Below are positions 38,864 through 62,390 of a stretch of DNA of 64,000 nucleotides, one piece after another. The translations under genes were made by a program, and so were the position numbers. The stretch's first letter is position 1; every line of letters begins with the position of its first letter. Source of the DNA: a virus (taxonomy: Duplodnaviria > Caudoviricetes); the IMG/VR virus record IMGVR_UViG_2904156775_000002, positions 1 through 64,000 of that record, one strand, 5' to 3'. The notes beneath the pieces were generated by a model that saw only the letters and a list, made by a program, of their open reading frames with translations, was not told the DNA's origin and searched no databases.

Positions 38864-38905
38864 AAGAGAGAAAACAAATTAGTAAATTGAAATGAAGGTG
38901 AACCA

Positions 38906-40345: not shown

Positions 40346-40441
40346 AGCTTACCTCCCATATAGTTTATTTTATAGCCTTAACAAATGTTATACAAACACT
40401 TGATTTTAAGTTAAGTTGTATGATATGATAATTTTCGTTGA

Positions 40442-46039: not shown

Positions 46040-46040
46040 G

Positions 46041-46076
46041 AAGAGTGCTGCGAAGGGGATTCGCAGCACTCTTTTT
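46041..46076. terminator. Bidirectional terminator between the nuclease gene and element 2
   Basis: AAGAGTGCTGCGAA/TTCGCAGCACTCTT. Confidence 0.8.
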
Positions 46077-46105
46077 AGTATCGAGGTACATTTCAAGAGG
46101 ATTAG

Positions 46106-48739
46106 TTATAAAGCATGCCAATTTAGTTTTAAGTTAAAGCTTTCTGTCACGCTGCTATGATAATTATAGAATGTCAATTTTAAAGCTATTACACTACCAT
46201 CGTTAGGGTCAGGCATGAGGTCAGCATCATAGAGCATCGTATAGCTTCGTGCCCATACTCTCGGCGATAATACATGAATACCGTAAGGAGGCGTATTCCT
46301 TTGTCCAGATACATGTCCCCGCACGTTATCTACATCTACATATGTAGCCCATAGGGAACGACCAAGCCCGTCAGCATTATTGGCTGCCTTGCGCCCTACA
46401 GTTAATTGTGCGCCATAGTTGAAATTATCGTATTCCGTATTACCCTCTAACGAGATGGATAGATTGAGACTGCGGCGACCTTTGCCTATTGGGATATAAT
46501 AGGTTTGATATTCTTTGGGTCCAACAGAGACGCTTAAGGGTCTGGCTCCATATGGAGTGCCTCCAAATGCGACATCTCCTCCCTCCGTCCGGATTGATCG
46601 CTCATCTCGGTACCGAGGATCGTGGTATATTCGCTCTTTGAATAAAGGAAAACCGTTAGGATCAAAATGTTTATTAATATTTAGATTTCCTCCAGGGTCT
46701 TCACCGCCATATCCAATTAATATATAGCCTATTCGAAGACTACCGTCCGGCGGATTAGGAGGATATGCAATTCTTCCCCCTTCTGTACCAGCACTCAAGT
46801 AATGTATAGTACTGTTCTTATCAATGTATAGATATCTATATTCCCAGCCGTCTAGATCGCTTTCGGATACAATTAATGAACGGTTACTAAACCTAGTCTC
46901 AGGTATTAGCTTATACGACCCATCCGGCATAATAACCTCAGAAGCTGAAACTACGATGTCAGCTGTCAATTTGGGCCATAAAAAAACAGACCCTGATTTC
47001 AAGTAATTATCACTTACCCCATTTACTCCAGTGAAGGAGTTTGCAGTTTTACCTGTGTATTCAAATTCATAAACAAATCCAAATAAGTTAGGGTTAGTTA
47101 TATCGTTAATATAGGCAGTCCCGCTTTCCGGAAATTGCTCCGTCGATTCCACATAAATCGTAGAAGCATTGATTGCGACAGCTGATGTCAACAACGTTTT
47201 AACTACCTCTTGCTTTCGATTCTCTATTCTAATAATACCACCGCTATGAATTCCTTTTCCCGCGATATCGTCAAGTCCTTTTTGTGTAATAGAACTCCAA
47301 GCATCTTGTAAGGCTTGCCTCAGGTAGGCTAGTTTCCCGGATAAAGCTGCGAATTTAGAGTTGACCTCTGCTCGTTCGTCCGGAGTAATTCCGGAGTCTG
47401 CAATTGCTGTCTCAATTGCGGTTAGCAGATCGTTAAAAGAAATATCATACTGCCGTTTAGCGTTTCCAAGGGCACTTTTCAACGTTACATTAGTCAAATA
47501 TAAACTGGAATAAATCCGTTCGTATTCTGCATCCACATCCGCTTTTTCCTTGGCCAACTGGAGCTTATGCTCAGCTATGATTTGCTTTTCAGCTTCACTA
47601 ATCAGACCGTCAGCAAACGAAGTCTCTATATAGTCTTCAAAATCATATTGTGCACGCTCAAGCTCCAATTGCTGCTGCTCCAGCTCAGCAGTACGCTTCT
47701 CCACCAGCATTTGGTACTCCCTTTGTTTACGACGGTATTGGAGCAAATAGTCAGAAACGTACAGCTCGCGATAATTGCCTAATACAAATCTAGGCGAGAC
47801 TCGCTTTTCAAACGGATTGCGTTCATGCTCATAAATTCTGGCTGATAAATGATACCCCATCTTCTCATTGATAACCAGTACGTCATCTCCAACGTTTACT
47901 TCACTGAGCTCAATCGATTCAATATCATAGCTTTCACGCGGTAGTTCGTAATTCTTCAAATATCGCTCCATTACAGCTAACAACTTTGATTGTTCATCGA
48001 TGTCGGACCATTCCATCTTTCCTTCATATGGGCGCTGTGAATCGTAGTAAGGAGAGTCTAAATATTTTTTTGTATGCCCCAAATAACCCTCAATCGTCAA
48101 CCCATCTTTTCCGTATCCATATAACCGCGTAATTCGCTCCGTATCTTGAACAGTACGACGAATGGATTTCAGATTTTTGCGGTAACGAATTTGTTTACCT
48201 GAATTAACTCCCTTTCGAGTTGTGAAGGTAACCGTATAGTTGTCGTATGATAAATCCGCATTAAACACTTCACGCAGCTCATGAAGAAGAGCAAGCTTGC
48301 TCTTCTCACCCCATTCAAATATATCTTGGGCAATGAAAGTACCATTAATATTAAACATGAACGGCGTTCCCGCAAAAAGTCGAGTAAGCATTGTCTCAAT
48401 GGTTTGCGCAGCTGCAAAATCAATATAGTCTTCATGATAGTAACGGCCCAAATCAAAGAAGATATGATGAGCTTCAATCTCCATATATGCATTTGACACA
48501 TCATGTTTCTCATCTGACTTCCAAATCAGAAAACGCTGGTCTTTTTCAATCTCATTTGGAAATCTGATTTCATAACCCGTTTCAATCATTTCGTAACGTT
48601 CATCGTCCCCTGGCAGTTTAGGATAACGAAATGTAATATAATATTCGCCGTTTAATACTTCGCGAACACGAACGGAAGAGGCGGCTGGCAAATAGGCCAA
48701 CCGCCCCTCGTTACTCCATAACTCTAATTTGGAAATCAT
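46106..48739 (-). CDS. Tal-type phage tail spike protein (prophage tail/endopeptidase family) with C-terminal putative binding region
   Basis: E.LNGEY...F.YP, AHHIFFDL, IRYRKNLK.I......ITRLYGYGKDGL. Confidence 0.85.
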   Translation of the reverse strand: MISKLELWSNEGRLAYLPAASSVRVREVLNGEYYITFRYPKLPGDDERYEMIETGYEIRFPNEIEKDQRFLIWKSDEKHDVSNAYMEIEAHHIFFDLGRYYHEDYIDFAAAQTIETMLTRLFAGTPFMFNINGTFIAQDIFEWGEKSKLALLHELREVFNADLSYDNYTVTFTTRKGVNSGKQIRYRKNLKSIRRTVQDTERITRLYGYGKDGLTIEGYLGHTKKYLDSPYYDSQRPYEGKMEWSDIDEQSKLLAVMERYLKNYELPRESYDIESIELSEVNVGDDVLVINEKMGYHLSARIYEHERNPFEKRVSPRFVLGNYRELYVSDYLLQYRRKQREYQMLVEKRTAELEQQQLELERAQYDFEDYIETSFADGLISEAEKQIIAEHKLQLAKEKADVDAEYERIYSSLYLTNVTLKSALGNAKRQYDISFNDLLTAIETAIADSGITPDERAEVNSKFAALSGKLAYLRQALQDAWSSITQKGLDDIAGKGIHSGGIIRIENRKQEVVKTLLTSAVAINASTIYVESTEQFPESGTAYINDITNPNLFGFVYEFEYTGKTANSFTGVNGVSDNYLKSGSVFLWPKLTADIVVSASEVIMPDGSYKLIPETRFSNRSLIVSESDLDGWEYRYLYIDKNSTIHYLSAGTEGGRIAYPPNPPDGSLRIGYILIGYGGEDPGGNLNINKHFDPNGFPLFKERIYHDPRYRDERSIRTEGGDVAFGGTPYGARPLSVSVGPKEYQTYYIPIGKGRRSLNLSISLEGNTEYDNFNYGAQLTVGRKAANNADGLGRSLWATYVDVDNVRGHVSGQRNTPPYGIHVLSPRVWARSYTMLYDADLMPDPNDGSVIALKLTFYNYHSSVTESFNLKLNWHAL

Positions 48740-48885
48740 TCCAACTCGCCGCCTTCAACTCCAGGTGAGCTTGTCTCTATCATCAACATTGTTCGATATG
48801 GCTCAGGAACATAATCAATTGGGAGCCGCCCTGATTGGACTGCTGTACGGTACATTCCAAGGTAGATTTCGTTTACATTATTCAT
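48736..48885 (-). CDS. Small CD1375-like fibre-associated protein, 49 aa (absent from ORF track)
   Basis: MNNVNEIYLGMYRTAVQSGRLPIDYVPEPYRTML...; GGAGG RBS; ATGA overlap with the Tal gene. Confidence 0.65.
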   Translation of the reverse strand: MNNVNEIYLGMYRTAVQSGRLPIDYVPEPYRTMLMIETSSPGVEGGELE

Positions 48886-49063
48886 CTGCATTTCCTCCCT
48901 CCAATATTTCAATTCTATTTCTTAAATAATCGACTTCTGACATAAGAACTGTAAGTAGCATAGTCGCCATCTCCATGTTCAGCTGAAATGTACTTTTATG
49001 AGGAGCCACCTCTATCCCCTTTGACTTGAGATAATCCACCGCATTTTGCAATGATGGTTCCAT
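48878..49063 (-). CDS. Small coiled-coil fibre chaperone-like protein
   Basis: Translationally coupled between the fibre gene and the CD1375-like gene. Confidence 0.6.
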   Translation of the reverse strand: MEPSLQNAVDYLKSKGIEVAPHKSTFQLNMEMATMLLTVLMSEVDYLRNRIEILEGGNADE

Positions 49064-49064
49064 A

Positions 49065-51593
49065 TTATGCCTCCTCCAGCGCTAATAGTCTTGCGGTATG
49101 CTGTGCCAATATCCAATCTTGTACGCCATCATGCGTCTTAATTGATGCGATATCTTGAGCAGATTGTGCCACAACACTGCTAAGAGTAGTTTGATAAGAT
49201 ATTGAAGCTTCCAATGCGTTTGATGTATATAAATGCTTATCTAATACAATATAGTCAACATAGACATTGTTGAGATCATTCAGCTCAGATACAGGTATTG
49301 ATGCTCTACTGGTTCCATAAGCATTATTGGATACTACAACCTTCCATTTTTCATTTCGATTGCCACCATCATAAACAGCAGTAATCAATGCTGCCCTGCG
49401 ATTTAACTGAGAGCCAGAGGGAATCTCGTAGCTAGGCGTCGTCACGTTCTGCATATTAATGAAGTATTCGTTGTTCGTATTAACTCCAACGCCTCTAACC
49501 GGGTTGACCTTCTCACGAATGACCATTCCTTCAAGTAGTTCAATCATATTTCCGCCAGATTCCAATGATAATCCGCCTTGGTCATCTGCAATTTGTTCAA
49601 TAACTGGAGTCGATAACACATAATCCAGTGTTGCCCAGGCTTCCCAGCCCGGAGCTTTATTGTTTGCGACAAAAGCCTCGGTATTGGTGACTGGCGCTGC
49701 TCCTGTCAGAATCGAAACCCAATTTGTATACGAATTACCGTTATTTCCACTGGCGCGCCAACCATTGCTTAACGCTGCAACTGCGTTATTATTGGGATTA
49801 ACGTTATCTATCCAACCACTATCCTCGTTTGTTACCGATAACACCACACCACCATATGCGGTGTTTAATCTAAATTCATTTGGGGCATTTTGAGCATTGT
49901 TTATGATATCTTGTCTGAGAATCGAACCATCGTACTTTACGGCAACAGCGCTATCATTAACATAGTCAGCTATTACATTACGCACAATTCTCTTGTATCC
50001 GCTAAAGTTTGAATGGAACACCCACCCCATTGTCCGGTCCAGTTTAACCCCCGTCCGCCAACGTCTAAACACTTTCCCCGTAGCGCTATCATAATTGTCC
50101 GTAATGCTTCGGTCAGCGTTACTCGCGAGTGGTACGGGACAATGAGCATATTGGTCGACCCGAGGTTCAAATAAGGCTGGGAGTTGATCTGCGTCGCCGA
50201 GAACAAGCATCCAATCCTTAAACTCAAATGTCCCAGTCGTGCCAGCATACATTGTGATTCGTATTCTAACAACATCGGATTGCGTCACAAAGGTCCCGTA
50301 TGACGAATTTCCAGCAGGTAAAATTATTCGTTCTGTATACTTGCTTCCATCCGCCCTTTCCTCAAGTACTGAAGCATAATTACTTGTCGAATATCTAAAC
50401 CATGCAAATGTATATGTTGTCTGGGGTGTGACGTTTGGATTTATCAGACAACCATAATCTGTTGCGGCAGAAGCATTAAGCGACACGTTATACTGGTTGA
50501 TTAATACGGCATTATTATGAATGTAATCTGGCACGCCTAGCAACAGGTTTTTACCCCTCTTCCGTACATTCACGCCCTGCAAATGTTTTACTCCGTCTAT
50601 ATACGGCAAGTAGGCGTCAAGAGCGTCGCCTTTTAAAGTAGTACCAATGGTTGCAAAGTCGGCATCTGACACTTCATAAATACGAAAAGAATCAATAAAA
50701 GCAGTGCCTGTCGTCGAAGTAACACCACTTGTTCCTACATACAACCTAAAGCCATCTGTTGTAATTACATTATTTTTAGGTATTTTCACATAGACAAGTT
50801 GCCAAGTCCCTGTAATCGTCGATGATGCAGCGGCGCTATATCTTTGGTTAACTCCATTATTTTTATCGTATATCCGGATGGCAAAATTACCTTGAGTAAT
50901 GGAGTCAATATAAATCCATCCAATAAGTAAATACTGTTTACTCCATTCGAGTTTATATGAATAATCCTTGTAGAGTAAGCTATTCTCGTTTGATACAAAC
51001 TTAAATGATTTACTACCTGTCTTAAACCGTTCTGTGGATAACACAACAGGCGATCCGTACGAACTAAATGAATCTAACCTCTCACACCCTCCATCGCTAC
51101 CAGTTATATTAACCAATGTCCGACCCTTAACCTGTACGGTCGCCCCGCTCGCTTGTGTTGTATTAACAACATTCATACCCCGATTAAGCATCGTTGTCTG
51201 ATCGCGATCCTCCATCTGGCGCCTTTCCATTCGATCCAATCTCGCCTTCAGCACTGGATGAACTGTACCGTCTGATCCGGCTCTCGCGTCCACAATTTCG
51301 GAATTGCTATTTCCAGCTTGTCCAACAATGCCATTAATCCTCTGGTTTTGACTGTCAATCGCTTCCTTAACATTTCTAGCTCCGCTGACTGGGCCGCTAT
51401 ACGTAATGCGATCCGCAGGGTGAGCTGTGGTACTGGAAGTGTGAGCGTTGTCTGCGGTCATGCGGGCTTGTTGCTCCGCGCTCACTTGCTGTTGAAGTGA
51501 GCTCAAATCGGCATGGGCACGATCAAAATTTCGATTGTGTTTAGCTAAGTTATCAAGATCAAGCATCTTGTCTATTTTTTCAAATCGACTCAT
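49065..51593 (-). CDS. Upper baseplate/tail fibre (receptor-binding) protein
   Basis: AH.A..ITY, EIVDAR...L.ARLD, V.GRTLVN, GKNLL, carbohydrate-binding-like beta domains. Confidence 0.8.
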   Translation of the reverse strand: MSRFEKIDKMLDLDNLAKHNRNFDRAHADLSSLQQQVSAEQQARMTADNAHTSSTTAHPADRITYSGPVSGARNVKEAIDSQNQRINGIVGQAGNSNSEIVDARAGSDGTVHPVLKARLDRMERRQMEDRDQTTMLNRGMNVVNTTQASGATVQVKGRTLVNITGSDGGCERLDSFSSYGSPVVLSTERFKTGSKSFKFVSNENSLLYKDYSYKLEWSKQYLLIGWIYIDSITQGNFAIRIYDKNNGVNQRYSAAASSTITGTWQLVYVKIPKNNVITTDGFRLYVGTSGVTSTTGTAFIDSFRIYEVSDADFATIGTTLKGDALDAYLPYIDGVKHLQGVNVRKRGKNLLLGVPDYIHNNAVLINQYNVSLNASAATDYGCLINPNVTPQTTYTFAWFRYSTSNYASVLEERADGSKYTERIILPAGNSSYGTFVTQSDVVRIRITMYAGTTGTFEFKDWMLVLGDADQLPALFEPRVDQYAHCPVPLASNADRSITDNYDSATGKVFRRWRTGVKLDRTMGWVFHSNFSGYKRIVRNVIADYVNDSAVAVKYDGSILRQDIINNAQNAPNEFRLNTAYGGVVLSVTNEDSGWIDNVNPNNNAVAALSNGWRASGNNGNSYTNWVSILTGAAPVTNTEAFVANNKAPGWEAWATLDYVLSTPVIEQIADDQGGLSLESGGNMIELLEGMVIREKVNPVRGVGVNTNNEYFINMQNVTTPSYEIPSGSQLNRRAALITAVYDGGNRNEKWKVVVSNNAYGTSRASIPVSELNDLNNVYVDYIVLDKHLYTSNALEASISYQTTLSSVVAQSAQDIASIKTHDGVQDWILAQHTARLLALEEA

Positions 51594-51613
51594 ATTCTTA
51601 CGCTCCTTTCGAA

Positions 51614-52435
51614 TTAATAAAGATAAGTGTGTCTGAAAATAAAATCGACCGTGAGATTGGCTCCGGTCGCTGAAATCGTAATTTTATTTTCCCCTTCAAT
51701 AAGTCGAGGAAACTTGCCCGTTGCACCGCTCACTGCACTAATTCCATTCTTGAGGATCGTTTGCTCAAGCGGAGCACAATTGATCTCGACTACATCATTA
51801 GCTGTCATCACGGTGTTTATCGTTAGTGATTCTGATGTCGCCGTATTGGTGATCTTAATGTTGGACCCGCTTCCTCTCATTCGAATGACAGGAAATGCTT
51901 CATGTGTTCCAGCGTGATATATGAGTTGAGACTTAGGCGATGTTGTAACTCCGAAGGAATAAGTATCGCCGTAACGTAAACCCATTCCAAACAAATAATT
52001 TTGCCCATATTCAAGCATTTGATGGGATTCCAATACACTTTCGGAGAAAGGATAGAAAGCCTTAAAGGGCAGAGTAAAGGATCCAAGAGACGCTATTTTT
52101 TCGATGGAGATTGTGCCATTGTACTTAGCCATCCACCGTTTACCCGGCATGCGGTCCAATACAAGCGGCTTGCTGCCCAGGCGAGCGTTGAACACTTTGG
52201 CTAATCGTTGCAAGGCTGCCTGATACTCAGACTCATCCTTTGTCAGCAATTCCACCGTTACTTCAATCATGCGTGGGCCATACCTCATCTCCATATCAAG
52301 AGAACCATCTAGTCCTGGCAAAGACTCTTCCTCTTGAATAGTTTCCGGAAGCAATGGAAGATTCACACCTGTTACAAGCAATCCAAGAGACGCAAAAGAG
52401 ACGCCGCCATAACTAGCCCCGCCATTATCGGTCAT
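51614..52435 (-). CDS. Distal tail protein (Dit)
   Basis: PG.DG......YGPR.I, L..D..PGK...AKY.G, FTLPF.A..PF, FP.L..GEN.I. Confidence 0.88.
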   Translation of the reverse strand: MTDNGGASYGGVSFASLGLLVTGVNLPLLPETIQEEESLPGLDGSLDMEMRYGPRMIEVTVELLTKDESEYQAALQRLAKVFNARLGSKPLVLDRMPGKRWMAKYNGTISIEKIASLGSFTLPFKAFYPFSESVLESHQMLEYGQNYLFGMGLRYGDTYSFGVTTSPKSQLIYHAGTHEAFPVIRMRGSGSNIKITNTATSESLTINTVMTANDVVEINCAPLEQTILKNGISAVSGATGKFPRLIEGENKITISATGANLTVDFIFRHTYLY

Positions 52436-55400
52436 ACGGGTCTCTCTCCTCTCGCTATCATTTGCCGTACAAGATGATCCTGCTCGCGATGATAGCTGTT
52501 GATATCAGCCTGGTCTTCTAAGCGAACATCTCCGTTGTTTTCAATAAGCGGCCCATAATAATTGTGATGAACGATCCTCTCTTCGCCAGCTTCTCTTTTC
52601 ATTACTAGATCGGTAATCTGTTGCGGCGTCAGTATGACTTCGCCAGCACGCAGAATTGCAGCTATTTCATCCGGCATGAGCATATTGCCCGCTGAGAAGT
52701 TGCTCACCCCCGCGATTCCCCCGGTATGGAAAAGCTTAACACCGTCTTTATACCATTTGCCTTCCTTACTGTTGTAATGTGCACCCAGTTTTTCGCCGAG
52801 TTCCTTATTGGAATCCGACAGTTTTTGCTTCTGATCCTTGCCTTCGGTATGCCAAGCTTTACTGTTCGCTTCCATCTGAGCAATATCCGCCAATTCACTT
52901 GGCGAAGGTCCGGATTGCGCCTGTACTACTGCCCCATACTTGGCTGACAGATCCTTCTGGAACTGATCAGCTTCAGCCAAAAGCGTTTTATTGGTGTTCC
53001 TAAAAGCAGATAGTCTATTATCTTCCATCAATTGATAGATTGGGCCAATATCACCGCTAAATGTTTCTGCAGCTATCTTGAGATCTGCATACCAGGACTC
53101 AATATCCTTCTTCTGCTTCTCGAATTCTGCCAGCTTGTTGTCTCGTTCTTCCTGCAGTGCGCGTTTACTGTCTTCAATATTCATCTTGCGCAGCTGCTCT
53201 TGCAGTTCTTTATACCGTTTTTGTCCTTTTTCAGAGGAAGCAAACTTGTATTTCTCCGCTTCTTCTTCTATGGATTGGCGTTCACGGCCTCGTTCTGACT
53301 CATCAATACCTCTTAGCAGATTATCGTAATGTTCTTCGGTTTTTCTTCTCTGTTCATCCAAGGCATCGAGTTCGGCTTTCCGCCTCTTGTCAATCTGATC
53401 CAGAAAGCTTTTGGTTAGCTCGCTCTGCTCTTTTTTAGCAGCTTCCACTGCATCTTTTGCTGCTGCTTCATCAAGTCTGCGCAACGCCATTCGGGCCTCA
53501 TACAAGGCTCTGTCGGCTTGCTTGTAGTATTCCGTATCAGATGCATAGCGCGAACGAATCCTCGTCCAAGCCTCAAGCTGCATGATGACAATATCGCGTT
53601 CTGAATCACCGCGTTCAGTCATAAGCCGCTTTTCCTTCTCAATCCATTCCGATGACTTATCGAATGACCGCCTGTGTGCTGCTTCCTCTTCCCGTGCCTG
53701 TTCTTCTGCCAATTCCTTGGCATTGGCAGCTATTTGTTCGGCTACTCTTTGTCGGCGAGACTCCGCATCCATCCATATATCATCATACTTTTTATTTACC
53801 TCAGCTAGTTTCTCAAGCTTATCATGTTCTTGTTGTAGGGTAAGTGTACCTAGCAGGCGTTTCTTTTCCAATAAGTTGAGTTCCGCATCGTAATGTTGTT
53901 TCGCAATTTCTTCTGCTCTAAGCTTTTTGCCGCCTTTTCCAGTTCCCTTGTCGGTACCCTTCTCATCATTTGATGAGATATCGGGTAGATCAAACAATTT
54001 AACCCATGTACCGTTTTCAATCGCAGATAATTCGATTTTATATTGAGATAGATTTGCTTTTAGCGAATCAAGTTGGGTAGTAGCTTTATCAACCAATTTA
54101 CTTACGGAATTTTGGTTTACATTATGAATGAAGAGGTCGTTATCCGTTAATTCCTCTGCCCATGGCGCTTTCTGCGGCTCTATATCCATCACTGCAGTAA
54201 GTGCTGCAAGATGTGTCTCAGCAGTGGTAATCGAAGCCTCTGTCGTGCGAATTAACGATTGGCGTTTTGCAGCTTCGGCAGTAAGCGTATACCGCAACGA
54301 GTCCTCTTCTGCCTTAATAATATTCCGGATTAGCTCCTCATTCGTTATCAACAGTTTCCCTTGAGCATCCATTTCGGCATGCAAAGAAGGGTACGTACTT
54401 GTCAGTTGTCTGACTATGCTAGTGAGTTGACCGTTTTCTTCAGCAGTTAATCCCGTTTTATTGCGTAGCGATTCATATTGATCCGCCAGCTTTTTAGTTT
54501 CTGTAATCTGGTTTTGCTTGGCTGCCGCTTCCTGCAACCCCTCCATACGCATCTCACGTATAGCAGGTCCGGATTCATCGATAGCTTTGTTCATCTCTTG
54601 TACAGCAAATTTTGCATCTGTAGCTGTATATCCCATAGCCTTTAGCTCTTTATCGACGGCTTTCACTTCATCTACCAAATTCATGAGAGCATGCGTGTTT
54701 TCGATTGAACCACGGCCCTCTTCGGCATCAAGCATGCGTTGATTATACTCATCCATAAGTCTGCTGCGCCGGTCCAATACTTCATTCAATACTTCAATAT
54801 CTGCCTGCATCGCCTTAATGTCTTCAACGGTTCGATCAGTTGGAGACTGAGATAGCTTATCATTCAATTCACCTTGCGCAATAGCCAGCTTGTTGACAGA
54901 TTCAGCCGCAACATTGGAAGCAGAGATATAACCAGCAAGTCCAATGCCAGCTAAAGATAACGCCGCAACAACCCATCCAATCGGGCCGAAACTAATACTC
55001 AGTGCAGTAGCAGCTGCTCTTACAGCACCTAATATGGTAATCAGAGACGTAAAACCGGCGATTAACCCAACAATACCAATACCTGCAGCGCTCAGACCGG
55101 CAACCAGCTCTTTATTGGATTCAACCCACTGCGTGAATCGAACAATGATAGGCATGACCAGCTCCATAAGTTCTTGCAATGCTGGCATAAAAGCTTCGCC
55201 AAGTTCCATACGAGCCATTTCTAATGTATTGTTAAAGATCATCTGCGTGCCTGCGTAGCTGTCAAGCGCCTCTTCTGCATTACCTGCAAATTGAGCAGCA
55301 TTCTCCAATACGCCTGTAAAAGCGGCTTGTACCTTCTCGCCTTCTGTTAGTCGGTCAGCTGTGATACCTATTTTTGTTGCATATCGTTCATGCATTGCGG

Positions 55401-55947
55401 ATAAGTTTGTTGTTATACCGGCTGATTCGATCATACCGGAATTACCTGATTTTATGCCGGATACAACCTGCCCTATCGCTTCTCCCCATCCGAGATGGGC
55501 ATCACGATTATAAGCAGCGGCATTTGCGGTAGCATAGATCAGTTCTCGAGTTTGCTCCAAGTTGAGACCCGACGATAACGCTGTTTGTATAGCAGTCGAA
55601 GCCTCCGATAAAGAAATAAATCCTTTTTTTGCCAATTCCTCAGCAAGGCCTGTCGTTTCCTTAACGCTTATCCCAAGTGTCCTGGCTACTTCTGACATTC
55701 CATTCATCGAGAATGCTAATTGATTGGCTTCTTCCGTTAATGATTTTACAGTATTGATAAGACCAGAAAACGCTGCTCCTGCTCCCAAAGCTGAAAAGCT
55801 CTTTTCAAGCTCAGCCCATTTATCCTTAGTCTCGCCTGATTCATTCTTTACGCTCTCCAGGAGCTCGCGTACCCGTTCCATTCCTTCCTTGAACTGGTTC
55901 ATCTCCAGTTCCATACGAACTTTAATTGCTTTTATTTCAGTCGTCAA
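52432..55947 (-). CDS. Tail tape measure protein, 1171 aa
   Basis: Ala/Gly-rich N-region, TM stretch (GPIGWVVAAL), coiled coils, FHTGG..E..AIL..GEVIL. Confidence 0.92.
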   Translation of the reverse strand: MTTEIKAIKVRMELEMNQFKEGMERVRELLESVKNESGETKDKWAELEKSFSALGAGAAFSGLINTVKSLTEEANQLAFSMNGMSEVARTLGISVKETTGLAEELAKKGFISLSEASTAIQTALSSGLNLEQTRELIYATANAAAYNRDAHLGWGEAIGQVVSGIKSGNSGMIESAGITTNLSAMHERYATKIGITADRLTEGEKVQAAFTGVLENAAQFAGNAEEALDSYAGTQMIFNNTLEMARMELGEAFMPALQELMELVMPIIVRFTQWVESNKELVAGLSAAGIGIVGLIAGFTSLITILGAVRAAATALSISFGPIGWVVAALSLAGIGLAGYISASNVAAESVNKLAIAQGELNDKLSQSPTDRTVEDIKAMQADIEVLNEVLDRRSRLMDEYNQRMLDAEEGRGSIENTHALMNLVDEVKAVDKELKAMGYTATDAKFAVQEMNKAIDESGPAIREMRMEGLQEAAAKQNQITETKKLADQYESLRNKTGLTAEENGQLTSIVRQLTSTYPSLHAEMDAQGKLLITNEELIRNIIKAEEDSLRYTLTAEAAKRQSLIRTTEASITTAETHLAALTAVMDIEPQKAPWAEELTDNDLFIHNVNQNSVSKLVDKATTQLDSLKANLSQYKIELSAIENGTWVKLFDLPDISSNDEKGTDKGTGKGGKKLRAEEIAKQHYDAELNLLEKKRLLGTLTLQQEHDKLEKLAEVNKKYDDIWMDAESRRQRVAEQIAANAKELAEEQAREEEAAHRRSFDKSSEWIEKEKRLMTERGDSERDIVIMQLEAWTRIRSRYASDTEYYKQADRALYEARMALRRLDEAAAKDAVEAAKKEQSELTKSFLDQIDKRRKAELDALDEQRRKTEEHYDNLLRGIDESERGRERQSIEEEAEKYKFASSEKGQKRYKELQEQLRKMNIEDSKRALQEERDNKLAEFEKQKKDIESWYADLKIAAETFSGDIGPIYQLMEDNRLSAFRNTNKTLLAEADQFQKDLSAKYGAVVQAQSGPSPSELADIAQMEANSKAWHTEGKDQKQKLSDSNKELGEKLGAHYNSKEGKWYKDGVKLFHTGGIAGVSNFSAGNMLMPDEIAAILRAGEVILTPQQITDLVMKREAGEERIVHHNYYGPLIENNGDVRLEDQADINSYHREQDHLVRQMIARGERPV

Positions 55948-55952
55948 CTTCG

Positions 55953-56330
55953 TTACCTCCTTCCTACTTGACCACGCAACTGTTCAAATGCACTGCGGTC
56001 AAATTCATCTTCTGGCATTTTTTCTGCCGGGTTCGCAATAAACTCAGCCTGCAGACTCTTAGCCAGCCGTTCATATGCTTGTTGATCAGCACTCTGGCTG
56101 ACGATAGCGATATTTAGTGCTATAAGCCGGTCCTCCGCCTTTGCCTGGGCTATGTACCATAGAATCATAGGCAAATCAATGAGGTAATACTCCGTTTCGA
56201 GCGATCGCTGGCTTACCCCCAGGCTGACTGAAGCTTGTAGAAGAAAATCATCAAGCGTTACACCATTTTGCCGTCGCCCGGTGCCTTCATGCCGAGTCCC
56301 AACTGTCCGAGGACGGCCCGGAAGTTTTTT
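55953..56330 (-). CDS. Frameshift extension of the tail assembly chaperone (gpGT-like)
   Basis: The -1 frame is open from slippery A AAA AAC (56330-56324) through to the stop at 55953. No good independent start. Confidence 0.7.
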   Translation of the reverse strand, partial: KKLPGRPRTVGTRHEGTGRRQNGVTLDDFLLQASVSLGVSQRSLETEYYLIDLPMILWYIAQAKAEDRLIALNIAIVSQSADQQAYERLAKSLQAEFIANPAEKMPEDEFDRSAFEQLRGQVGRR

Positions 56331-56668
56331 AATGTGCGCTGCAAATCATTTTTCTCGAGCGTCAAACGAATGAAATCTGTAATTTCGTTCAAATCTGCAT
56401 GTGACGAAATATACTCTGCATCCATATCCGCCAGCACAGCAACCAGCTGGACCATTTCATCCAATGCCAAATTAGCGCCAGCCAGAACCGTTGCAACGAA
56501 ATCATCCGTATCCCGATCTGCCAACACACGAATAACGATGGCCGGAAGCGTCTCAATACGTTCAAACAAAGCCTTGTACTTCTCTGGAGTTAATTTTGGA
56601 ATCTGAACCGTTTTATCCCCTAGCTGGACACTATCTTGTTGCGATTGACCAAATAATTTTCCTATCAC
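56258..56668 (-). CDS. Tail assembly chaperone (gpG-like)
   Basis: Between tube and tape measure genes; LKN slippery codons near the C-terminus. Confidence 0.8.
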   Translation of the reverse strand: MIGKLFGQSQQDSVQLGDKTVQIPKLTPEKYKALFERIETLPAIVIRVLADRDTDDFVATVLAGANLALDEMVQLVAVLADMDAEYISSHADLNEITDFIRLTLEKNDLQRTLKNFRAVLGQLGLGMKAPGDGKMV

Positions 56669-56700
56669 AGCAATCTCCCTTTCCTTTTGTAAAATAGAAT

Positions 56701-56722
56701 AGACGGCTCATATGAGCCGTCT
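56701..56722 (-). terminator. Hairpin after the tail tube gene
   Basis: AGACGGCTCATATGAGCCGTCT, a perfect palindrome. Confidence 0.6.
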
Positions 56723-56731
56723 GCGTGCCTA

Positions 56732-57271
56732 TTAAACCGATTTTGCGTTCGGATCACCGATACCAAGCAGCAGTCCATTTGTATCTGGGTAGCCTTTGAA
56801 CGTCACATTCGTAACGAGCTCATTGTCATAGGAATACGTGTAGTTCAAAGTTGTTGTTGGCGCTGCTTTATACAAAGTGATCGTATCGTTGGCCGTAGCT
56901 GTGGAAGACAGCGGCTCAATTCTCACTTCTTTAGCATAATCGATCAAATCCACAATTTTGGAAGCATCCACGTCGACGCGTTGCTTAGTAGGATCCGTCT
57001 TATCCGTTACCAGGGTCGAACCCGGAATGACTTTAGCAAGCTTGACCAGATCGTATTCAGCGAACGGCACGGCAAGCGATGCCTTTCTACCTGTAATTAT
57101 TTCCCGAACTGGCGTAGTGCCGAATTGGTCGACGACGACTTCACGCATCGTCATCTCGTACGTAAGTACCACGCCGCCTTTCGTTGTTTCAAAAACGACC
57201 GGAGTCGTACCGCCTACGTCAAACGTTACCTTGCATGGACCTAGCTTAACTTTTGTTGTATCAGTTGCCAT
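56732..57271 (-). CDS. Major tail tube protein
   Basis: MATDTTKVKLGPC.V.....TKGGV...Y.......DQFG.TP; AGGAGG RBS places the start at 57271. Confidence 0.85.
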   Translation of the reverse strand: MATDTTKVKLGPCKVTFDVGGTTPVVFETTKGGVVLTYEMTMREVVVDQFGTTPVREIITGRKASLAVPFAEYDLVKLAKVIPGSTLVTDKTDPTKQRVDVDASKIVDLIDYAKEVRIEPLSSTATANDTITLYKAAPTTTLNYTYSYDNELVTNVTFKGYPDTNGLLLGIGDPNAKSV

Positions 57272-57320
57272 AATAAAATTCCTCCTAAATGTTGTTTGTG
57301 ATTTTATCGTATAAAAAATC

Positions 57321-57698
57321 TTAAAAACGGCTAAGCATAATAGCTGTGAAATTAATGGAATACAACACTCTATGATAATCGTCGAGTCCAAGATAGAGAG
57401 GCGCGGATTGGTCAGCAAATATAGCCAAAATATGTTCATCACCGATCTGACAATCATGGCGGCGATGAAATTCCTCATATATGGTGTTGGCTAGCTTCTC
57501 TGCAGCGGGGCCGTTATCTCCGCGCACTACAATTTGAATGGAAGGTCGACGCTGGCTTGTCCATTGGCTGGGGACAGTACCGCTATGAATTCGTACATAA
57601 CCGGAATTATCTTCAGCCGATACCGGAAATTCATTCGGATAATACGTATAAGGCACGACAGACTGTACGAACGCAACTAGTTCAGTTATGGCAAACAC
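57321..57698 (-). CDS. Tail terminator / 'minor capsid' family protein
   Basis: PSIQIVVRG...A..IY, QS.P.YLG.D...R..YSINF. Confidence 0.8.
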   Translation of the reverse strand: MFAITELVAFVQSVVPYTYYPNEFPVSAEDNSGYVRIHSGTVPSQWTSQRRPSIQIVVRGDNGPAAEKLANTIYEEFHRRHDCQIGDEHILAIFADQSAPLYLGLDDYHRVLYSINFTAIMLSRF

Positions 57699-57701
57699 AT
57701 C

Positions 57702-58103
57702 CTATCTCCACTCCTTTCCGATTTCTTTTGCAAGATTGTTCACAAAGTCCTGATAGTTTTCCTGAAAGGGACGCTCCAGAAACTTCAGATGTTGTGTTGT
57801 GTTTGGATCGCCGCCAACTTCATGCAAGTAGATGGCACTCTTCTCATCCTGTGCATCCTCGCTACGAATAGCGGCAAAATATACCTCGCCTACTATATTG
57901 GAGCCTTCCGATTTTATATCAATCCAGGACTCAAGGAGAGGCTGGTCTCCGTTGACTGGCGCCAGCTGCTTAGCTTGCTTGTGCAGCTTTTCCATAGATC
58001 TTCCGATTTCGCTTTCAGCAGCGGTTAGCGTAGACCCTAGCATTGAATTCAGAAAATTCTCAACTGCAGAATCGTCATATGTTATTTGGAAAGATTGTGT
58101 CAT
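57702..58103 (-). CDS. HK97 gp10-like neck protein
   Basis: AKQLAPV....L..S, AIYLHE, KFLERP. Confidence 0.75.
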   Translation of the reverse strand: MTQSFQITYDDSAVENFLNSMLGSTLTAAESEIGRSMEKLHKQAKQLAPVNGDQPLLESWIDIKSEGSNIVGEVYFAAIRSEDAQDEKSAIYLHEVGGDPNTTQHLKFLERPFQENYQDFVNNLAKEIGKEWR

Positions 58104-58420
58104 TTTGCGTGCACCACCGTATAGACCGCACTTCCATTCAGCCAGCGTTTGCGTTGGATCTGAACAACATGGTATACACGTTCGTTTTCTAATTCATCCG
58201 TATACTTAAATGTATGGGAAGCTGAAATGGCAGCAAATCCCTTCAGCCATATTTGGACTGTCGACACAGCTTGTTTTCCGTGCGGGTCTGTTATGACTTC
58301 CGTCTGCACTTGAATACGGCATTTCAGCATAACAGGATTATCCCAGGACTGTGAATTCCATGGATGATTGCTGCCAGGTGGGCATAACATAATGTTTTGT
58401 TTAAGTGGAATCAATCCCAT
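58100..58420 (-). CDS. Head-tail adaptor/closure protein
   Basis: IPLKQ, KCRI.......G...VS; positional. Confidence 0.7.
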   Translation of the reverse strand: MGLIPLKQNIMLCPPGSNHPWNSQSWDNPVMLKCRIQVQTEVITDPHGKQAVSTVQIWLKGFAAISASHTFKYTDELENERVYHVVQIQRKRWLNGSAVYTVVHAK

Positions 58421-58831
58421 TTACAGCACCGTCCATTTCAATGCTCGACGAGAGAAAGATGCTTCTGGATTAGCATCTGTAATTAGCCTTAGAACCTTAT
58501 CGGTTATTAAGCCGTCAAGTCCTGTCTTAGTTGACTCCTTGTACGTCACTTCTGCAACACCGGTTAATGAGTACGATTGGATCCCATGCTGGCGCAGCCG
58601 ATTCACATCATTAAAAGCGATCGCCAATTCGTTCGCATATTCGTAAACTGCTGAATCCGGAATCGTAAAGCCTCGGTAGGATCCGAGAAGCATTTGCTTT
58701 GCTGTCAGCAGCAGCCTTTGCTTCCTTACTTCTTCTGAGTCAAACCAGTCCTCAGAATCAATACATTGCATACGGATATAATCATCCGCATCCAATACTG
58801 CAATTGCCAAAATTATCGCCTCCCTCCGCAT
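58421..58831 (-). CDS. Head-tail connector protein
   Basis: DADDYI.....D.EDW...KQRLL..A...L, G..SYSL.G. Confidence 0.7.
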   Translation of the reverse strand: MRREAIILAIAVLDADDYIRMQCIDSEDWFDSEEVRKQRLLLTAKQMLLGSYRGFTIPDSAVYEYANELAIAFNDVNRLRQHGIQSYSLTGVAEVTYKESTKTGLDGLITDKVLRLITDANPEASFSRRALKWTVL

Positions 58832-58837
58832 CCTCGT

Positions 58838-59335
58838 TTATATGCTGTTTTGTTTAAGCCTATTTTGCGAGGAGGTAGTCAACACAAAAATGTGCTTCTT
58901 TTTCAGCAAGGCTTCAAGCGCCTTCCTCATTCCGACAACTTGCCCGTTTGCATCTACCGAGATTCCCGATTTATCCAACAGCCTATAAGCTTCATCAATC
59001 GCCTCTAAACGCAGATTAGCATGGGCTGCCGCTCGCTTATATTCAGCCTTCTTCACTCTTTCGACAGCCAATTTAACCATGGATGAGGCAATCGCCTCCG
59101 CACGTGTGGCAATTTCTTTCGAGGCTTTTAGCTCGGCTTGAATACGTATCAATTCTCTCAACGATGCCTTCTCTTGCTCGCATTCAACAGTCAGTTGATC
59201 CAACAATGCCGTTTTTAATGACTCTATCTCGCCGTATTTTTTACGTTCCCGAGCAATTCGTTTTGCAATAATGGCATCAAACTCTTCCTGCGTCAGATTA
59301 ATGGTATCCTCTGTAGATTGATTGTGTAAGTTCAT
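58838..59335 (-). CDS. Capsid scaffolding protein, apparently C-terminally shortened
   Basis: TQEE.DAIIAKRIARERKKY, coiled coil, A..LLD.S.I.VD..G.V.G...ALEAL. Confidence 0.75.
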   Translation of the reverse strand: MNLHNQSTEDTINLTQEEFDAIIAKRIARERKKYGEIESLKTALLDQLTVECEQEKASLRELIRIQAELKASKEIATRAEAIASSMVKLAVERVKKAEYKRAAAHANLRLEAIDEAYRLLDKSGISVDANGQVVGMRKALEALLKKKHIFVLTTSSQNRLKQNSI

Positions 59336-59411
59336 CGTATTATCCTCCGTGATTTGCAGCGCCGTCGCGCTTTTCTCCGTCAGTTTAAGGACATGCCGTA
59401 GGTCCGGTCGA

Positions 59412-60728
59412 TTATTTTATCTGCATGTGTCCCCATTGAATATCGGGGTACTGGGGAGTATAGGATACAAAGCCTGCCGCTCCTTCATTAGCTGTATTAT
59501 CGAGCACCATTGCGGTATACAGAGCTTCCTGAAGTGCCCGCTCCAGATGCATACAGATTCGATTAAGCTTAGAGTACCAAGGAAGAAGCAGCGTTTTCAG
59601 CGCATCGCCATCTGTGGCCGCATGATTACCAAGAAATTTGCTATACAACCATTCAGGAAAATCTGATTGCATAAATAGGAGTGAGAGCATGGTATCCAGT
59701 TCTTCAAAAGCGTCCTTCAGCTGTGATTCCCACTTCATATACCCTGGCAAGGGATCATCCTTGCCAACTGGAATATATTTACTGGAAATCCGAAGCTCTT
59801 TGGTCCCTATACCGTCCTCCAGATCGTTTGGTCCGTAGGCTATTGGATCTGCATGTTTCCATAAGATGTAGTCGATATGGGATAATCGGTCATGTATGGC
59901 TGCTAATATAGACTCCGACTTCTCAATGCCGCCAATGCCTCTCCAATCATCATCTACTGTTTTGTAAGGAATGTGAAAAACCAGCAGCCCATCTGCTCCA
60001 GTAGGAACGATATCCTCTTCCCTGCCTGTCGGCACTTGCTCAGTTATAGAGTAAACAGGCCTGCTTACACCATAGCTATCCTCTTTCCCGATTAGTTCCA
60101 GCTTGAATTTTTCATACTGAATATAACCTGGTAGATGACGTTCAACGTGCAAGTAATTGACTTGCTCATTACCGGAACCTACTGATTCTATGCATGTGAG
60201 ATTTATAGCTCTGAACCTGTTCTTGTTACGCTGTCCCCCTTCAGGATAAACTGAAGACGCTTGGGCAATTTCCATAATGGCATCTGCCTTTGTGTTAGGT
60301 TGAGCCAACGCTTCCTCTACTAGGCCTCCTAGTTCCTCAGTTACACCATAACTAATCTTGAGCCAGGAGTCGCCGCGAATGCCGCTTCCGGTTACCAGTT
60401 CATGAATAAGCCGCTTCAAATGATTCTTTCGTATCATTCGGTCTAGAGCAGTTTGTGCCGTTGATTCATTGACTCCCTCTACCTTGAATGATATTGTGCT
60501 TCCCGCAATCATATCCGCTGGCTTTGAGATTAAGGTATCCATTACATTTATGGCTACGTTCAGCTTTGCAAGCTGCGGTTCCAACGGGGTATCGCGCAGC
60601 AATTCTGAAATACGGCTGTACATGAGACGTCGGCCTTCATAAACTGCTTTGCTTCGTTCATATTTAGCAAGCCGTTCAATATCCTCAGCTGGCGGGAATA
60701 AACCGCCGACTTGAAATTTTTTTGCCAC
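59412..60728 (-). CDS. Phage portal protein (SPP1 gp6-like), apparently lacking the C-terminal region
   Basis: FPP..DIERLAKY, KPAD, RGDSW.K, HIPYK..DDDWRG, IDYIL.KH.DP..YGP; ends at YPDIQW. Confidence 0.85.
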   Translation of the reverse strand: MAKKFQVGGLFPPAEDIERLAKYERSKAVYEGRRLMYSRISELLRDTPLEPQLAKLNVAINVMDTLISKPADMIAGSTISFKVEGVNESTAQTALDRMIRKNHLKRLIHELVTGSGIRGDSWLKISYGVTEELGGLVEEALAQPNTKADAIMEIAQASSVYPEGGQRNKNRFRAINLTCIESVGSGNEQVNYLHVERHLPGYIQYEKFKLELIGKEDSYGVSRPVYSITEQVPTGREEDIVPTGADGLLVFHIPYKTVDDDWRGIGGIEKSESILAAIHDRLSHIDYILWKHADPIAYGPNDLEDGIGTKELRISSKYIPVGKDDPLPGYMKWESQLKDAFEELDTMLSLLFMQSDFPEWLYSKFLGNHAATDGDALKTLLLPWYSKLNRICMHLERALQEALYTAMVLDNTANEGAAGFVSYTPQYPDIQWGHMQIK

Positions 60729-60831
60729 CTTTCTGCCTCCTGTCGTTAGGAATTCGAATTATTTCGTGAATGGGATAAATGACCTTCATAACGTATAGGT
60801 TTGAGAGCAATCAAAAAAGGGGGATGAATTA

Positions 60832-60843
60832 GAACAAATGTTC
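60832..60843. promoter_or_regulatory. LexA (Cheo) box upstream of the portal operon
   Basis: aGAACAAATGTTCt, a perfect GAAC-N4-GTTC. Confidence 0.75.
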
Positions 60844-60873
60844 TCTTTTTCTATAATTAATATAGTTATAGGG

Positions 60874-60899
60874 AAAATAAAAACGCCAACAATGGCGTT
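60874..60899 (-). terminator. Terminator after the regulatory gene pair
   Basis: AACGCCA-4 nt-TGGCGTT with a T-run on the minus strand. Confidence 0.55.
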
Positions 60900-60906
60900 C
60901 AGAGTG

Positions 60907-61302
60907 TTACTGATGCATTAACTCGAAATGCGAACGGCGTCTCTTTGTAGGCTTCCGATAATTCCGTCCGTCAGCTCCCGTTTCCTCTACTGCTTTAAGC
61001 CCTGTTTCACGGTCATGCCGCAGTTTCATTTGCCATTCACTCAGAAAGGGATATTCGTTATGTGCGATTTTATACACATCCGGATCCGACAATTCTTCTT
61101 TTAATATATAATTGCTTAACCGATTGAGCTGGTTAGAGTCAGGGGTATTTCCGGTCAGAGAAACAAAACTATCAATGAGTGCAGCAATTGTGGCAATACG
61201 CTTTTTTCTCTCAGGAGTATGGTATGCAATTATTTGCGTCACAGCATCTTCAAAGCTCGCCTCGGCAACGCCCAGTTTTGATTCCCACTCTGTTAGTATC
61301 AT
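60907..61302 (-). CDS. Hypothetical phage protein coupled to the sigma-like activator
   Basis: PD..QL.RL.NYIL.EEL.DP...K....EYPFLS..Q; ATGA overlap. Confidence 0.7.
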   Translation of the reverse strand: MILTEWESKLGVAEASFEDAVTQIIAYHTPERKKRIATIAALIDSFVSLTGNTPDSNQLNRLSNYILKEELSDPDVYKIAHNEYPFLSEWQMKLRHDRETGLKAVEETGADGRNYRKPTKRRRSHFELMHQ

Positions 61303-61688
61303 GAATGTTCCTCCCCCTCATACTCGACAATCACATGTGCATAATTCCATTGAACAAAGATTGCTGTAATACGTTCTACTCCAGCTGCGACCAGATCCTT
61401 TACGCTATCTTTGCGTATCCCCATCATCTCTGCCGCTGCTTGTTGCGTTGCATCATTTTCATATATCCAGGCGACTGCTTCTCTCTGGCGGTTCGTAAGT
61501 CCAGCTATTTGTATTGCTGTATTCAAATCGATCAGAATATCTGATGCCGACATATCGCCTCTTCCTCTACGAGCTGAGATTCTATGCTGATCACGAAGCA
61601 ATTGCTTGACTCCAGTGGAAGTATTAAGGGCATATTCTTGAGCATATCTTCTTGCGTTTTTCATCATATCCAAGTTGTTCATCCGCAT
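61299..61688 (-). CDS. Sigma-70 region-4-like HTH late-gene activator
   Basis: IDL..AI..AGLT.RQREAV..IY..D.TQ..AAE.MGI....V. Confidence 0.8.
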   Translation of the reverse strand: MRMNNLDMMKNARRYAQEYALNTSTGVKQLLRDQHRISARRGRGDMSASDILIDLNTAIQIAGLTNRQREAVAWIYENDATQQAAAEMMGIRKDSVKDLVAAGVERITAIFVQWNYAHVIVEYEGEEHS

Positions 61689-61739
61689 TTAGTTGTCCCC
61701 CGTTTTTTTTAATGATTGAACCCACCAACAATAAAAAAC

Positions 61740-61782
61740 GAACTTATGTTCTTATTTTATCTATGAAAAGTACAAGAGTCAA
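61740..61782 (-). promoter_or_regulatory. sigmaA promoter with a LexA box over the transcription start
   Basis: Minus strand TTGACT (61782-61777)-17 nt-TAAAAT (61759-61754), followed immediately by GAACATAAGTTCG (61751-61739). Confidence 0.85.
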
Positions 61783-62390
61783 CCTCTTTTATTGAATATC
61801 GCCAAGTATGTATTACTTTCTTGTACAAAAATTGTTGTACTTCACATCGATTTGTTCAGGTCAGAGTGCAAAAAAAGGATAGCTATCATGATAGCTATCC
61901 TTATCTGACACTTTTTAATTTTGATCGTAACATCCCTTGGCTCCAATCTACTTTTCCCGACCTTCTCCATTCGGAAATTCTTCAATAGGTAATAGTTCAA
62001 ATAATGTTCGATTGCTGCAAACATCTTTTCCTTGAACGTCTATACTAGTCGAGGGTATACGAGTACTTCATTTCTTCAAATATTCGAACTTCTAAATCTA
62101 TAGAATGGTTAATAAAAGGCTAAAAAATTTAGTATCCTACATCTTTAGGAATGGCATCCGGCCATGTCCACATAGAAAGATATACATATTCTTCGATGTC
62201 ATTTGAGCAGTTTCAATCATATAAATTTCTGGAAGGATAACTGTATTTACTCCATCGAGCGCGCGACAGTTGTATCATGTTTCAGCTCCCAGCCGAAATC
62301 CAAACACACCAAAACGGCGTCCGGACCTTTAATGGTTCGGACGCCGTTTCTTTTTGTCGCTTCACTCCGGCTTCGGCCGGCCGGAAGCGT

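Follow-up and report, generated by a model that had tools for sequence, protein, structure and literature searches.

The locus analysed here raises the question of whether a phage tail operon without capsid or lysis genes is a working tailocin caught partway through its reduction or a prophage remnant on its way to decay. Tailocins are thought to arise from prophages by the loss of head genes, and intermediates are scarce. The window is a 64,000-nt stretch (IMG/VR record IMGVR_UViG_2904156775_000002, positions 1 to 64,000), equivalent to contig C11:105559-169558 of a 5.76-Mb Paenibacillus genome (G000) that is 99.65% complete. We call its minus-strand tail operon element 2, its plus-strand tail cluster at 8597-39745 element 1, and a remnant beyond the window end element 3. 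The finding concerns the operon at 46106-61790, which is probably, though far from securely, an F-type tailocin-like element that is maintained, under SOS control and midway in its reduction, and predicted to be released by lysis supplied in trans. Judged from its genes, what is new here is a tail element that keeps a truncated portal, a scaffold core and neck proteins and has no lysis genes of its own.

The first-pass annotation described a compact, intact, capsid-less operon running from an activator to the tail-associated protein Tal. Compactness and intactness were borne out: 17 minus-strand open reading frames (ORFs) between 46106 and 61688, from the sigma-like gene to Tal, are tightly packed and have no internal stops by ORF listing and translation. 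Protein families were assigned by Pfam, PHROGs and NCBIfam profile searches. By these searches and by full-length alignments to phage homologues, the tail set is complete and non-contractile, with tube, G/T chaperones, tape measure, Dit, Tal and terminator and no sheath (Table 1). The tube protein is 86% identical to that of the prophage in genome G091 and 68% identical to that of P. xanthanilyticus (locus L013), and Tal is 68% identical to its homologue in the G017 prophage across the full length. The label capsid-less holds in part. Element 2 has no terminase, minor capsid or SU10-type major capsid gene, yet it keeps a truncated portal, a scaffold fragment, an adaptor and other neck genes. 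Pfam and PHROGs found no major capsid, terminase or head-maturation gene among the 17 proteins. The SU10-type capsid family PF17236 had no match anywhere in G000 (positive controls: two in G091, one in G018), and the sole cognate-type terminase in G000 is a fragment with a stop, inside the decayed remnant. The predicted lack of lysis genes also stands, with 0 of the 17 proteins matching a holin or endolysin family. In 45200-62400, 23 short ORFs contain a hydrophobic stretch; by coordinates, 22 were judged antisense to or embedded in larger genes, and the other, of 41 amino acids (aa; 45971-46096), lies just past the Tal stop, over the hairpin there and antisense to the end of a nuclease gene.

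Prophages of G018, G009, G020, G091 and P. xanthanilyticus are collinear full phages. In these relatives, p131 homologue and portal are separated by the small and large terminase genes, portal and scaffold by a gene for a minor capsid protein (PF06152), and scaffold and adaptor by one for an SU10-type major capsid protein (PF17236, 1.9e-88), so that the adaptor gene follows the capsid gene. The head-neck genes of the G091, G018 and L013 prophages are collinear with those of element 2 at 44-56% identity, but these prophages, unlike element 2, carry terminases, the minor capsid protein and the SU10-type capsid, with portals of 513-527 aa and scaffolds of 230-235 aa. In alignments, the deletion junctions fall inside p131, portal and scaffold. 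The p131 protein has lost 59 C-terminal residues relative to its G018 homologue, the portal, compared with G091 and G018, lacks about 85 C-terminal residues and carries a short new end in their place, and the scaffold fragment, which has its own ribosome-binding site (RBS) and start, aligns to residues ~38-187 of the 235-aa G091 scaffold. The additional head genes of the collinear full phages and the intragenic junctions show that three deletions made element 2. One took out both terminase genes, small and large. A second removed the C-terminus of the portal together with the minor capsid gene and the N-terminus of the scaffold, and a third the C-terminus of the scaffold together with the SU10-type major capsid gene. 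The modules for lysogeny, replication and lysis are gone as well. The G017 prophage carries the tape measure, Dit, p842, two small ORFs and Tal in the same order (42-68% identity), and behind its Tal come a 117-aa ORF, a holin of the r1t type and an endolysin with NAGPA, Amidase_2 and SLH domains; since element 2 has no such genes 3' of Tal, its lysis cassette was evidently lost. What remains is the full tail set, four neck/terminator genes, the portal minus its C-terminal end, the scaffold core and the sigma-like activator pair, whose activator is 47-49% identical to the gene preceding the late operon in G018 and G009.

The 438-aa protein is identified as a portal fold with wing, stem and clip on the basis of a structural model. 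Its AlphaFold2 model (predicted local distance difference test 72, predicted template-modelling score 0.70) matched the phiCD508 portal with a Foldseek E value of 1.5e-10. VIA-align placed it on the SaPI1/80alpha portal (8vde; Z 22.0, root-mean-square deviation (rmsd) 6.6, 336 residues aligned) and on SPP1 gp6 (7z4w chain A; Z 20.1, rmsd 6.2, 320 aligned), the model ending at 80alpha residue 434 and gp6 residue 419. Among the 120 best listed of 171 portal homologues with E <= 1e-20, 118 measure 466-554 aa, and the window protein and one other measure 438 aa. The missing C-terminal region is presumably the crown domain. Apart from the phrog_533 match, sequence searches were less telling than the fold: the truncated portal did not reach the PF05133 cut-off (no family for the window protein or for P0002), PDB searches with the portal alone and with a 23-sequence profile returned no match, and NCBIfam recognised the portal neither in element 2 nor in G091. 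On full-length relatives, PF05133 covers residues ~373-502 (profile positions 304-413 of 416), a part of which is deleted in element 2. For the adaptor, each of the top 11 structural matches was a phage neck or adaptor chain or YqbG of B. subtilis (Z 4.2-6.4), a weak but consistent result.

Such a locus could be an inert prophage remnant, that is, a tail operon useless to the host and not yet decayed after accidental deletions, with LexA boxes inherited from the phage. Junctions that cut into p131, portal and scaffold fit this explanation, as do the lack of lysis genes, the presence of the element in three close lineages only, its foreign composition and a neighbourhood littered with phage remnants such as element 3. 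The relatives of element 2 speak against it. Metagenome contigs from four runs labelled air and silage differ from it by 8-15% in nucleotides, in pieces spanning 46134-61876. One contig of 4754 bp is collinear with 58893-61723 (2829 versus 2831 nt, 230 differences, 8.1%) and continues through pieces at 58041-58123 and up to 57787; because it runs on in this way, its first 1535 letters cannot hold a capsid gene. The truncated portal recurs on this contig and on a 46,204-bp JGI contig (438 and 439 aa in cluster look-ups), so that it is open in three lineages, 88.4-89.2% identical pairwise and with the same new C-terminal end. Indels in the portal of the 4754-bp contig sum to 3 nt, or one codon, and keep the frame. 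A truncated scaffold of 161 aa was found on five contigs, including these two, and is open in six sequences (161-165 aa) with 82-87% identity between lineages; the adaptor is present on both. The same layout is kept at the same locus, with open frames, in two other diverged lineages.

Neutral simulation of the portal at 8.1% divergence, a figure that is an average over contig blocks and not exact per gene, gave a protein identity of 83.1 +/- 1.0%; none of 2000 runs reached the 89.2% seen, and 1.3% were free of stops. For the whole operon (5043 codons), 2% divergence already produced a mean of 10.9 stops, with none of 300 runs stop-free. Since the truncated portal and scaffold are still open where neutral drift should break them, element 2 looks maintained, and the same reasoning counts against an inert remnant: all 17 ORFs are open although relatives with the same truncations differ by 8-15%, portal identity exceeds every neutral run and indels preserve the frame. 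Element 3, with its split genes and insertion sequence (IS) insertions, shows the decay expected under neglect. We therefore consider an inert remnant unlikely.

Element 3 lies at G000:C11:~180000-189400 (L029 10400-19900), about 11-20 kb past the window end. It includes an amidase gene, a holin gene broken across two frames, IS (rve) genes and a Tal divided into ORFs of 425 and 108 aa. Its chaperones share 49-67% identity with their element 2 counterparts, and the chaperone genes directly adjoin a terminase fragment with a stop.

Two stretches of element 2, the centre of p842 (49672-50839) and the adaptor/c106 region (57848-59015), are poorly covered in the relatives, with covered flanks on both sides. 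At 80% likeness, 50256-50839 and 57848-59015 had little or no cover, which means divergence above 20% or a gap and not absence. Together with adaptor identities of 64-70% versus 89% for the portal, this points to fast-evolving or exchanged segments. A separate metagenome scan found only one distant, unrelated locus.

Two perfect LexA boxes had been predicted for element 2, and both were recovered as exact GAACN4GTTC cores, one just downstream of the -10 element of the activator promoter and one between the terminator of the regulator pair and the portal. The lexA promoter of G000 itself holds GAACAAATGTTC, identical in its core to box 2, together with GAACTTATGTTT, and a box with one mismatch stands in the recA promoter. 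In the window, three cores compare with 0.69 expected, a modest excess that 4 of 100 shuffles reach. Genome-wide, 69 perfect cores occur in 5.76 Mb, nine of them with an A/T-only spacer, and two of these nine lie in the two regulatory gaps of element 2 (~390 nt), where ~0.005 would be expected. The full 14-mer Cheo consensus with up to two mismatches was not enriched in the window (21 versus 16.5 expected). Element 2 has an operator of the Cheo-box type of the Bacillota LexA regulon that overlaps a promoter. Because exact boxes stand at two promoter regions and one core is the same as in the lexA promoter, SOS control of element 2 is well supported at the sequence level. The region of the box-2 promoter has no alignable counterpart in five full-phage relatives, which argues against boxes inherited from the phage by an inert remnant; we take it as a sign of capture by the host repressor, though an unsampled ancestor may be the source. 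In some relatives, 65 extra letters stand at 61723-61740, between box 1 and the RBS of the sigma-like gene. The third perfect core in the window (26947-26958) falls within the 3' end of a gene of element 1, 51 nt ahead of the following start, and the collinear position in G073, the genome of a sister species syntenic with the window, has no perfect core.

How would a tail element without lysis genes leave the cell? The first-pass annotation pointed to the lysis cassette of element 1, about 6 kb away, and proposed that two unrelated tail types are co-induced by SOS and released by one lysis system. The cassette is indeed 6.4 kb from the Tal stop, and the tail types are unrelated, element 1 being SPbeta-like and element 2 of an SPP1/SU10-like lineage. 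Besides a YonO-like polymerase (PF05183; phrog_8308 5e-187) and its holin and amidase, element 1 has four small tail genes and encodes a tape measure of 1750 aa, a Tal resembling YomG and other distal proteins; profile searches found no head genes in it. It is collinear in G073, where its core is 70-95% identical and its distal, receptor-binding part 28-53%, and where element 2 is missing. As for co-induction, element 2 has exact boxes at both promoter regions, whereas element 1 has a one-mismatch box. This box, GAACATATGTTT, is conserved in G073 despite a diverged upstream flank, which makes co-induction of element 1 plausible; it is followed by TTGCTT-17-TGcTATGAT, not called by the promoter scan. 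Outside the shared -10/LexA-box stretch, 12-mers common to the regulatory regions of the two elements were at chance level. One lysis system shared by both elements is a reasonable proposal. Dependence of element 2 on element 1 lysis is plausible and unproven, since a complete-looking HK97-type prophage on contig C20 also carries its own holin and amidase; C19 holds an orphan holin. At 38362-38385, a strong terminator hairpin with a T-run precedes the start of the element 1 holin by 10 nt, and the gap holds no promoter-like site; expression of the element 1 lysis genes seems to depend on read-through, perhaps that of the YonO-like polymerase.

Comparison with G073 delimits element 2. Synteny with the window extends over 54 kb, and 26 of 39 queried window proteins match at 28-95% identity, against none of seven element 2 queries. 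Homology ends at ~46074-46077, just beyond the nuclease-gene hairpin, and restarts at 62250, with ~1.15 kb of unrelated DNA at the site in G073. As element 2 is missing from this syntenic site, the 16.2-kb block was gained after the split from G073. The terminator that had been proposed after Tal turned out to be a hairpin without a U-run in the operon direction; it belongs to the convergent nuclease gene and is kept in a species lacking element 2. No flanking direct or att repeats were found around element 2, and Pfam and PHROGs found no integrase, replication, excision or packaging genes in 46078-62249. The junctions to the upstream SLH gene and the downstream nuclease gene are common to the metagenome relatives. 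Element 2 is best seen as a chromosomally fixed derivative of a temperate siphophage.

The same data bear on a helper-dependent satellite, or complementing element, that would spread with the capsid and terminase of a helper phage. Its kept portal, scaffold and neck genes could dock to borrowed capsids, and a second intact-looking prophage sits on C20. Against this stand the missing mobility and packaging genes and att repeats, the identical chromosomal junctions in relatives and a genome without an SU10-type capsid gene; the capsid of the C20 prophage is of the unrelated HK97 type, and its portal belongs to PF04860. We regard a satellite as very improbable. The satellite and gene-transfer-agent readings were rejected for want of capsid, packaging or mobility genes.

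If element 2 is a maintained SOS-controlled tailocin-like element, it could work as follows. In undamaged cells, LexA would occupy two sites, box 1, where it covers the start of the activator pair's housekeeping promoter, and box 2, which precedes the structural operon. After DNA damage, LexA would be removed and the sigma-like protein would drive the structural operon. Dit, Tal and p842 would form the tip around the tape measure, and the tube would polymerise to ~175 nm and be capped by the terminator. By the rule of thumb of ~0.15 nm per tape-measure residue, tails of ~176 nm for element 2 and ~262 nm for element 1 would be expected. The adaptor, connector proteins and a ring of truncated portal might add a proximal cap, and the scaffold core might help this ring to form. 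Particles would exit only when another element lyses the cell, with the element 1 holin and amidase as the nearest candidates, and would kill related strains through binding by p842 and Tal.

Whether the truncated portal, scaffold core and neck are a selected functional module and not leftovers is doubtful, and we think it a long shot. Its boldest form combines a tailocin with a decoy, in which the sigma factor of an infecting phage of the same head lineage triggers expression in trans and the procapsid assembly of that phage is poisoned; a milder form is a portal-capped F-type particle. Known F-type tailocins are described as having no head genes and a cap formed by the terminator alone (PMC11830787; bioRxiv 10.64898/2025.12.13.693970), which makes any portal role speculative.

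A related proposal makes interference the main function and the tailocin role secondary: portal and scaffold core, perhaps with tails, would be trans-activated by the sigma factor of an infecting phage whose head module is related, and would poison or hijack its procapsid assembly. The kept fragments are the parts expected to contact each other, the C-terminal ends of portal and scaffold are lost, the latter being what we take to be the capsid-binding region, and the fragments are conserved as open frames. Full phages of the genus use a homologous sigma-like activator (47-49% identity), and in SPP1, procapsid assembly most likely begins from a portal-scaffold-capsid interaction (PMC6316719). 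However, a decoy would not need the full, costly tail operon that is kept, and LexA control suggests expression induced by damage rather than by infection. We judge a decoy quite improbable.

Several observations weigh against a maintained tailocin-like element. If the true divergence were 5%, portal identity would be compatible with neutrality, although even then a stop-free frame would have a chance of 8%. Open frames in the relatives were read for portal and scaffold, the tail genes being covered as contig pieces only. LexA binding is predicted from motifs. A close portal relative is absent from 73 other Paenibacillus species genomes (six match, best identity 51%), and the GC content at third codon positions is 0.40 in element 2 versus 0.56 in flanking host genes; the element is young and narrowly distributed. 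Its deletions end inside genes, as accidental deletions do, and the head fragments could be tolerated leftovers.

Among known systems, monocin comes close to element 2 as proposed here: it is a siphovirus-type tail cluster in the chromosome of a Gram-positive host, has no capsid genes, is SOS-induced and cannot excise (PMC6872733, PMC11830787). Unlike element 2, monocin has its own holin-lysin cassette, no head genes and a proximal cap made of the terminator FtbF alone (PMC11830787). It is controlled by a CI-like repressor and the anti-repressor MpaR, whereas element 2 has predicted LexA boxes at its structural promoter, and it is co-regulated with a cohabiting prophage under SOS (PMC6872733). 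Efagins of Enterococcus faecalis are likewise chromosomally fixed, phage-derived tail elements of Gram-positives, but all head genes are described as absent from them, in a study whose authors remark on the scarcity of evolutionary intermediates (bioRxiv 10.64898/2025.12.13.693970). By the strict standard of no head genes that monocin and efagins set, element 2 differs in keeping a portal, a scaffold fragment and an adaptor. SPP1 offers a full-phage counterpart: its connector (gp6 portal, gp15 adaptor, gp16 stopper) and gp11 scaffold are mirrored by the portal fold match and the weak adaptor fold match, and the order portal, scaffold, [capsid], adaptor, closure is the same (PMC6316719). In contrast to SPP1, the element 2 portal ends at gp6 residue ~419, its scaffold lacks both ends, and no capsid or terminase partner is present.

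Paired tail clusters have a precedent. The R- and F-type pyocins of Pseudomonas aeruginosa are two unrelated, adjacent tail clusters induced by DNA damage, with one shared lysis cassette and shared regulators. They differ from elements 1 and 2 in their Gram-negative host, lambda/P2-like ancestry, control by PrtR/PrtN in place of direct LexA boxes, and no known portal or scaffold; pyocin clusters are contiguous, while elements 1 and 2 are convergent and 6.4 kb apart. Capsid-forming phage-inducible chromosomal islands (PICIs) are mobile phage-derived islands that encode one half of a virion, making capsids and stealing tails. Element 2 is their mirror image, with tails made and no mobility genes seen. 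Literature searches, which left subscription journals and preprint supplements outside their range, found no portal-bearing tailocin and nothing that combines YonO with a tailocin.

The locus and its relatives form a dated series: full phages, a reduced form whose deletion junctions are known exactly, a syntenic site that is empty, and a decayed remnant. In element 2 itself, the host SOS repressor would have taken direct control, and autonomous lysis has been lost beside an older tail element that keeps its own. If the truncated portal and scaffold core are functional, they would be a new component for F-type particles and could show how a portal ring assembles without a capsid.

Table 1. Features of element 2 and of the element 1 sites discussed with it (window coordinates; a dot marks features without a strand)
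Feature	Position	Strand	Evidence or remark
Whole element 2 block, 16.2 kb	46078..62249	-	absent from syntenic site in G073
Terminator-like hairpin (insulator) upstream of promoter	61875..61902	-	sequence scan
Sigma-70-type promoter TTGACT-17-TAAAAT	61754..61782	-	10/12 consensus matches
Predicted LexA (Cheo) box 1, GAACTTATGTTC	61740..61751	.	exact GAACN4GTTC core, just downstream of -10
Sigma-like late activator, 129 aa	61299..61688	-	phrog_3512 3.6e-25; Sigma70_r4 9.8e-6
p131, partner of sigma-like gene	60907..61302	-	phrog_13088 3.1e-30
Intrinsic terminator after regulator pair	60881..60900	-	sequence scan
Predicted LexA box 2, GAACAAATGTTC	60832..60843	.	exact core; 104 nt upstream of portal start, between terminator and portal
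Truncated portal, 438 aa	59412..60728	-	phrog_533 2.9e-25; fold match; C-terminal end missing
Scaffolding-protein core fragment, 165 aa	58838..59335	-	PF06810 1.2e-6 (below cut-off); PHROG scaffold families; own RBS
Head-to-tail adaptor, 129 aa from TTG start (129-136 aa)	58421..58810	-	phrog_10959; structural matches
Connector/head-closure-like protein c106, 106 aa	58100..58420	-	phrog_3881, phrog_21832 (weak); collinear in G091
Neck/tail-completion position, c133, 133 aa	57702..58103	-	position only; 31% identity to G091 counterpart
Tail terminator	57321..57698	-	PF12691 1.8e-14
Major tail (tube) protein, 179 aa from internal ATG	56732..57271	-	phrog_2175 3e-45, phrog_885
Tail assembly chaperones G (56258-56668) and T (55953-56174)	55953..56668	-	phrog_18210; T frame open in -1 from end of G
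Tape measure protein, 1171 aa	52432..55947	-	PHROG tape-measure families; TIGR01760
Distal tail protein Dit	51614..52435	-	PF05709 6.1e-21, PF22768, phrog_33 3.5e-42
p842, candidate receptor-binding protein	49065..51593	-	phrog_13022 4.3e-84; weak CBM_4_9 leads
Two small ORFs, 61 and 58 aa	48736..49063	-	63% and 60% identity; same order in G017
Tal, tail-associated/baseplate hub protein, 877 aa	46106..48739	-	PF06605 1.9e-35, PF18994
Hairpin shared with convergent host nuclease gene	46041..46073	.	-23.7 kcal/mol, z -7.0
Element 1 holin (38396-38863) and amidase (38906-39745), candidate trans lysis source	38396..39745	+	PF05105 6.6e-29, PF01510 2.8e-19
Element 1 LexA-like box, GAACATATGTTT	7889..7900	.	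one mismatch; ahead of small ORFs and YonO-like polymerase gene

Several neighbouring features complete the picture of the region. The nuclease gene at the end of element 2 (45401-46039) encodes a secreted protein with NucA/NucB and Excalibur domains, and a 64% identical nuclease gene (L027 5159-6013) lies ~2 kb from the endolysin of the G017 prophage; it may mark a shared integration hotspot or be a phage-associated gene. Where element 1 ends, the stretch 39968-40516 contains a tRNA-Val gene (40442-40516) and, beside it, a serine-recombinase fragment of 125 aa (Zn_ribbon_recom), probably the old integration site. Upstream of element 1 are AgrB-like and LytTR genes and a DndB-like/MrpR-type recombinase pair (1439-2476, 5465-7829). 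Between the two elements, 42579-45239 holds the gene of an 886-aa RCC1-repeat protein with 10 diverged copies of a 35-nt DNA repeat, 79% conserved in G073.

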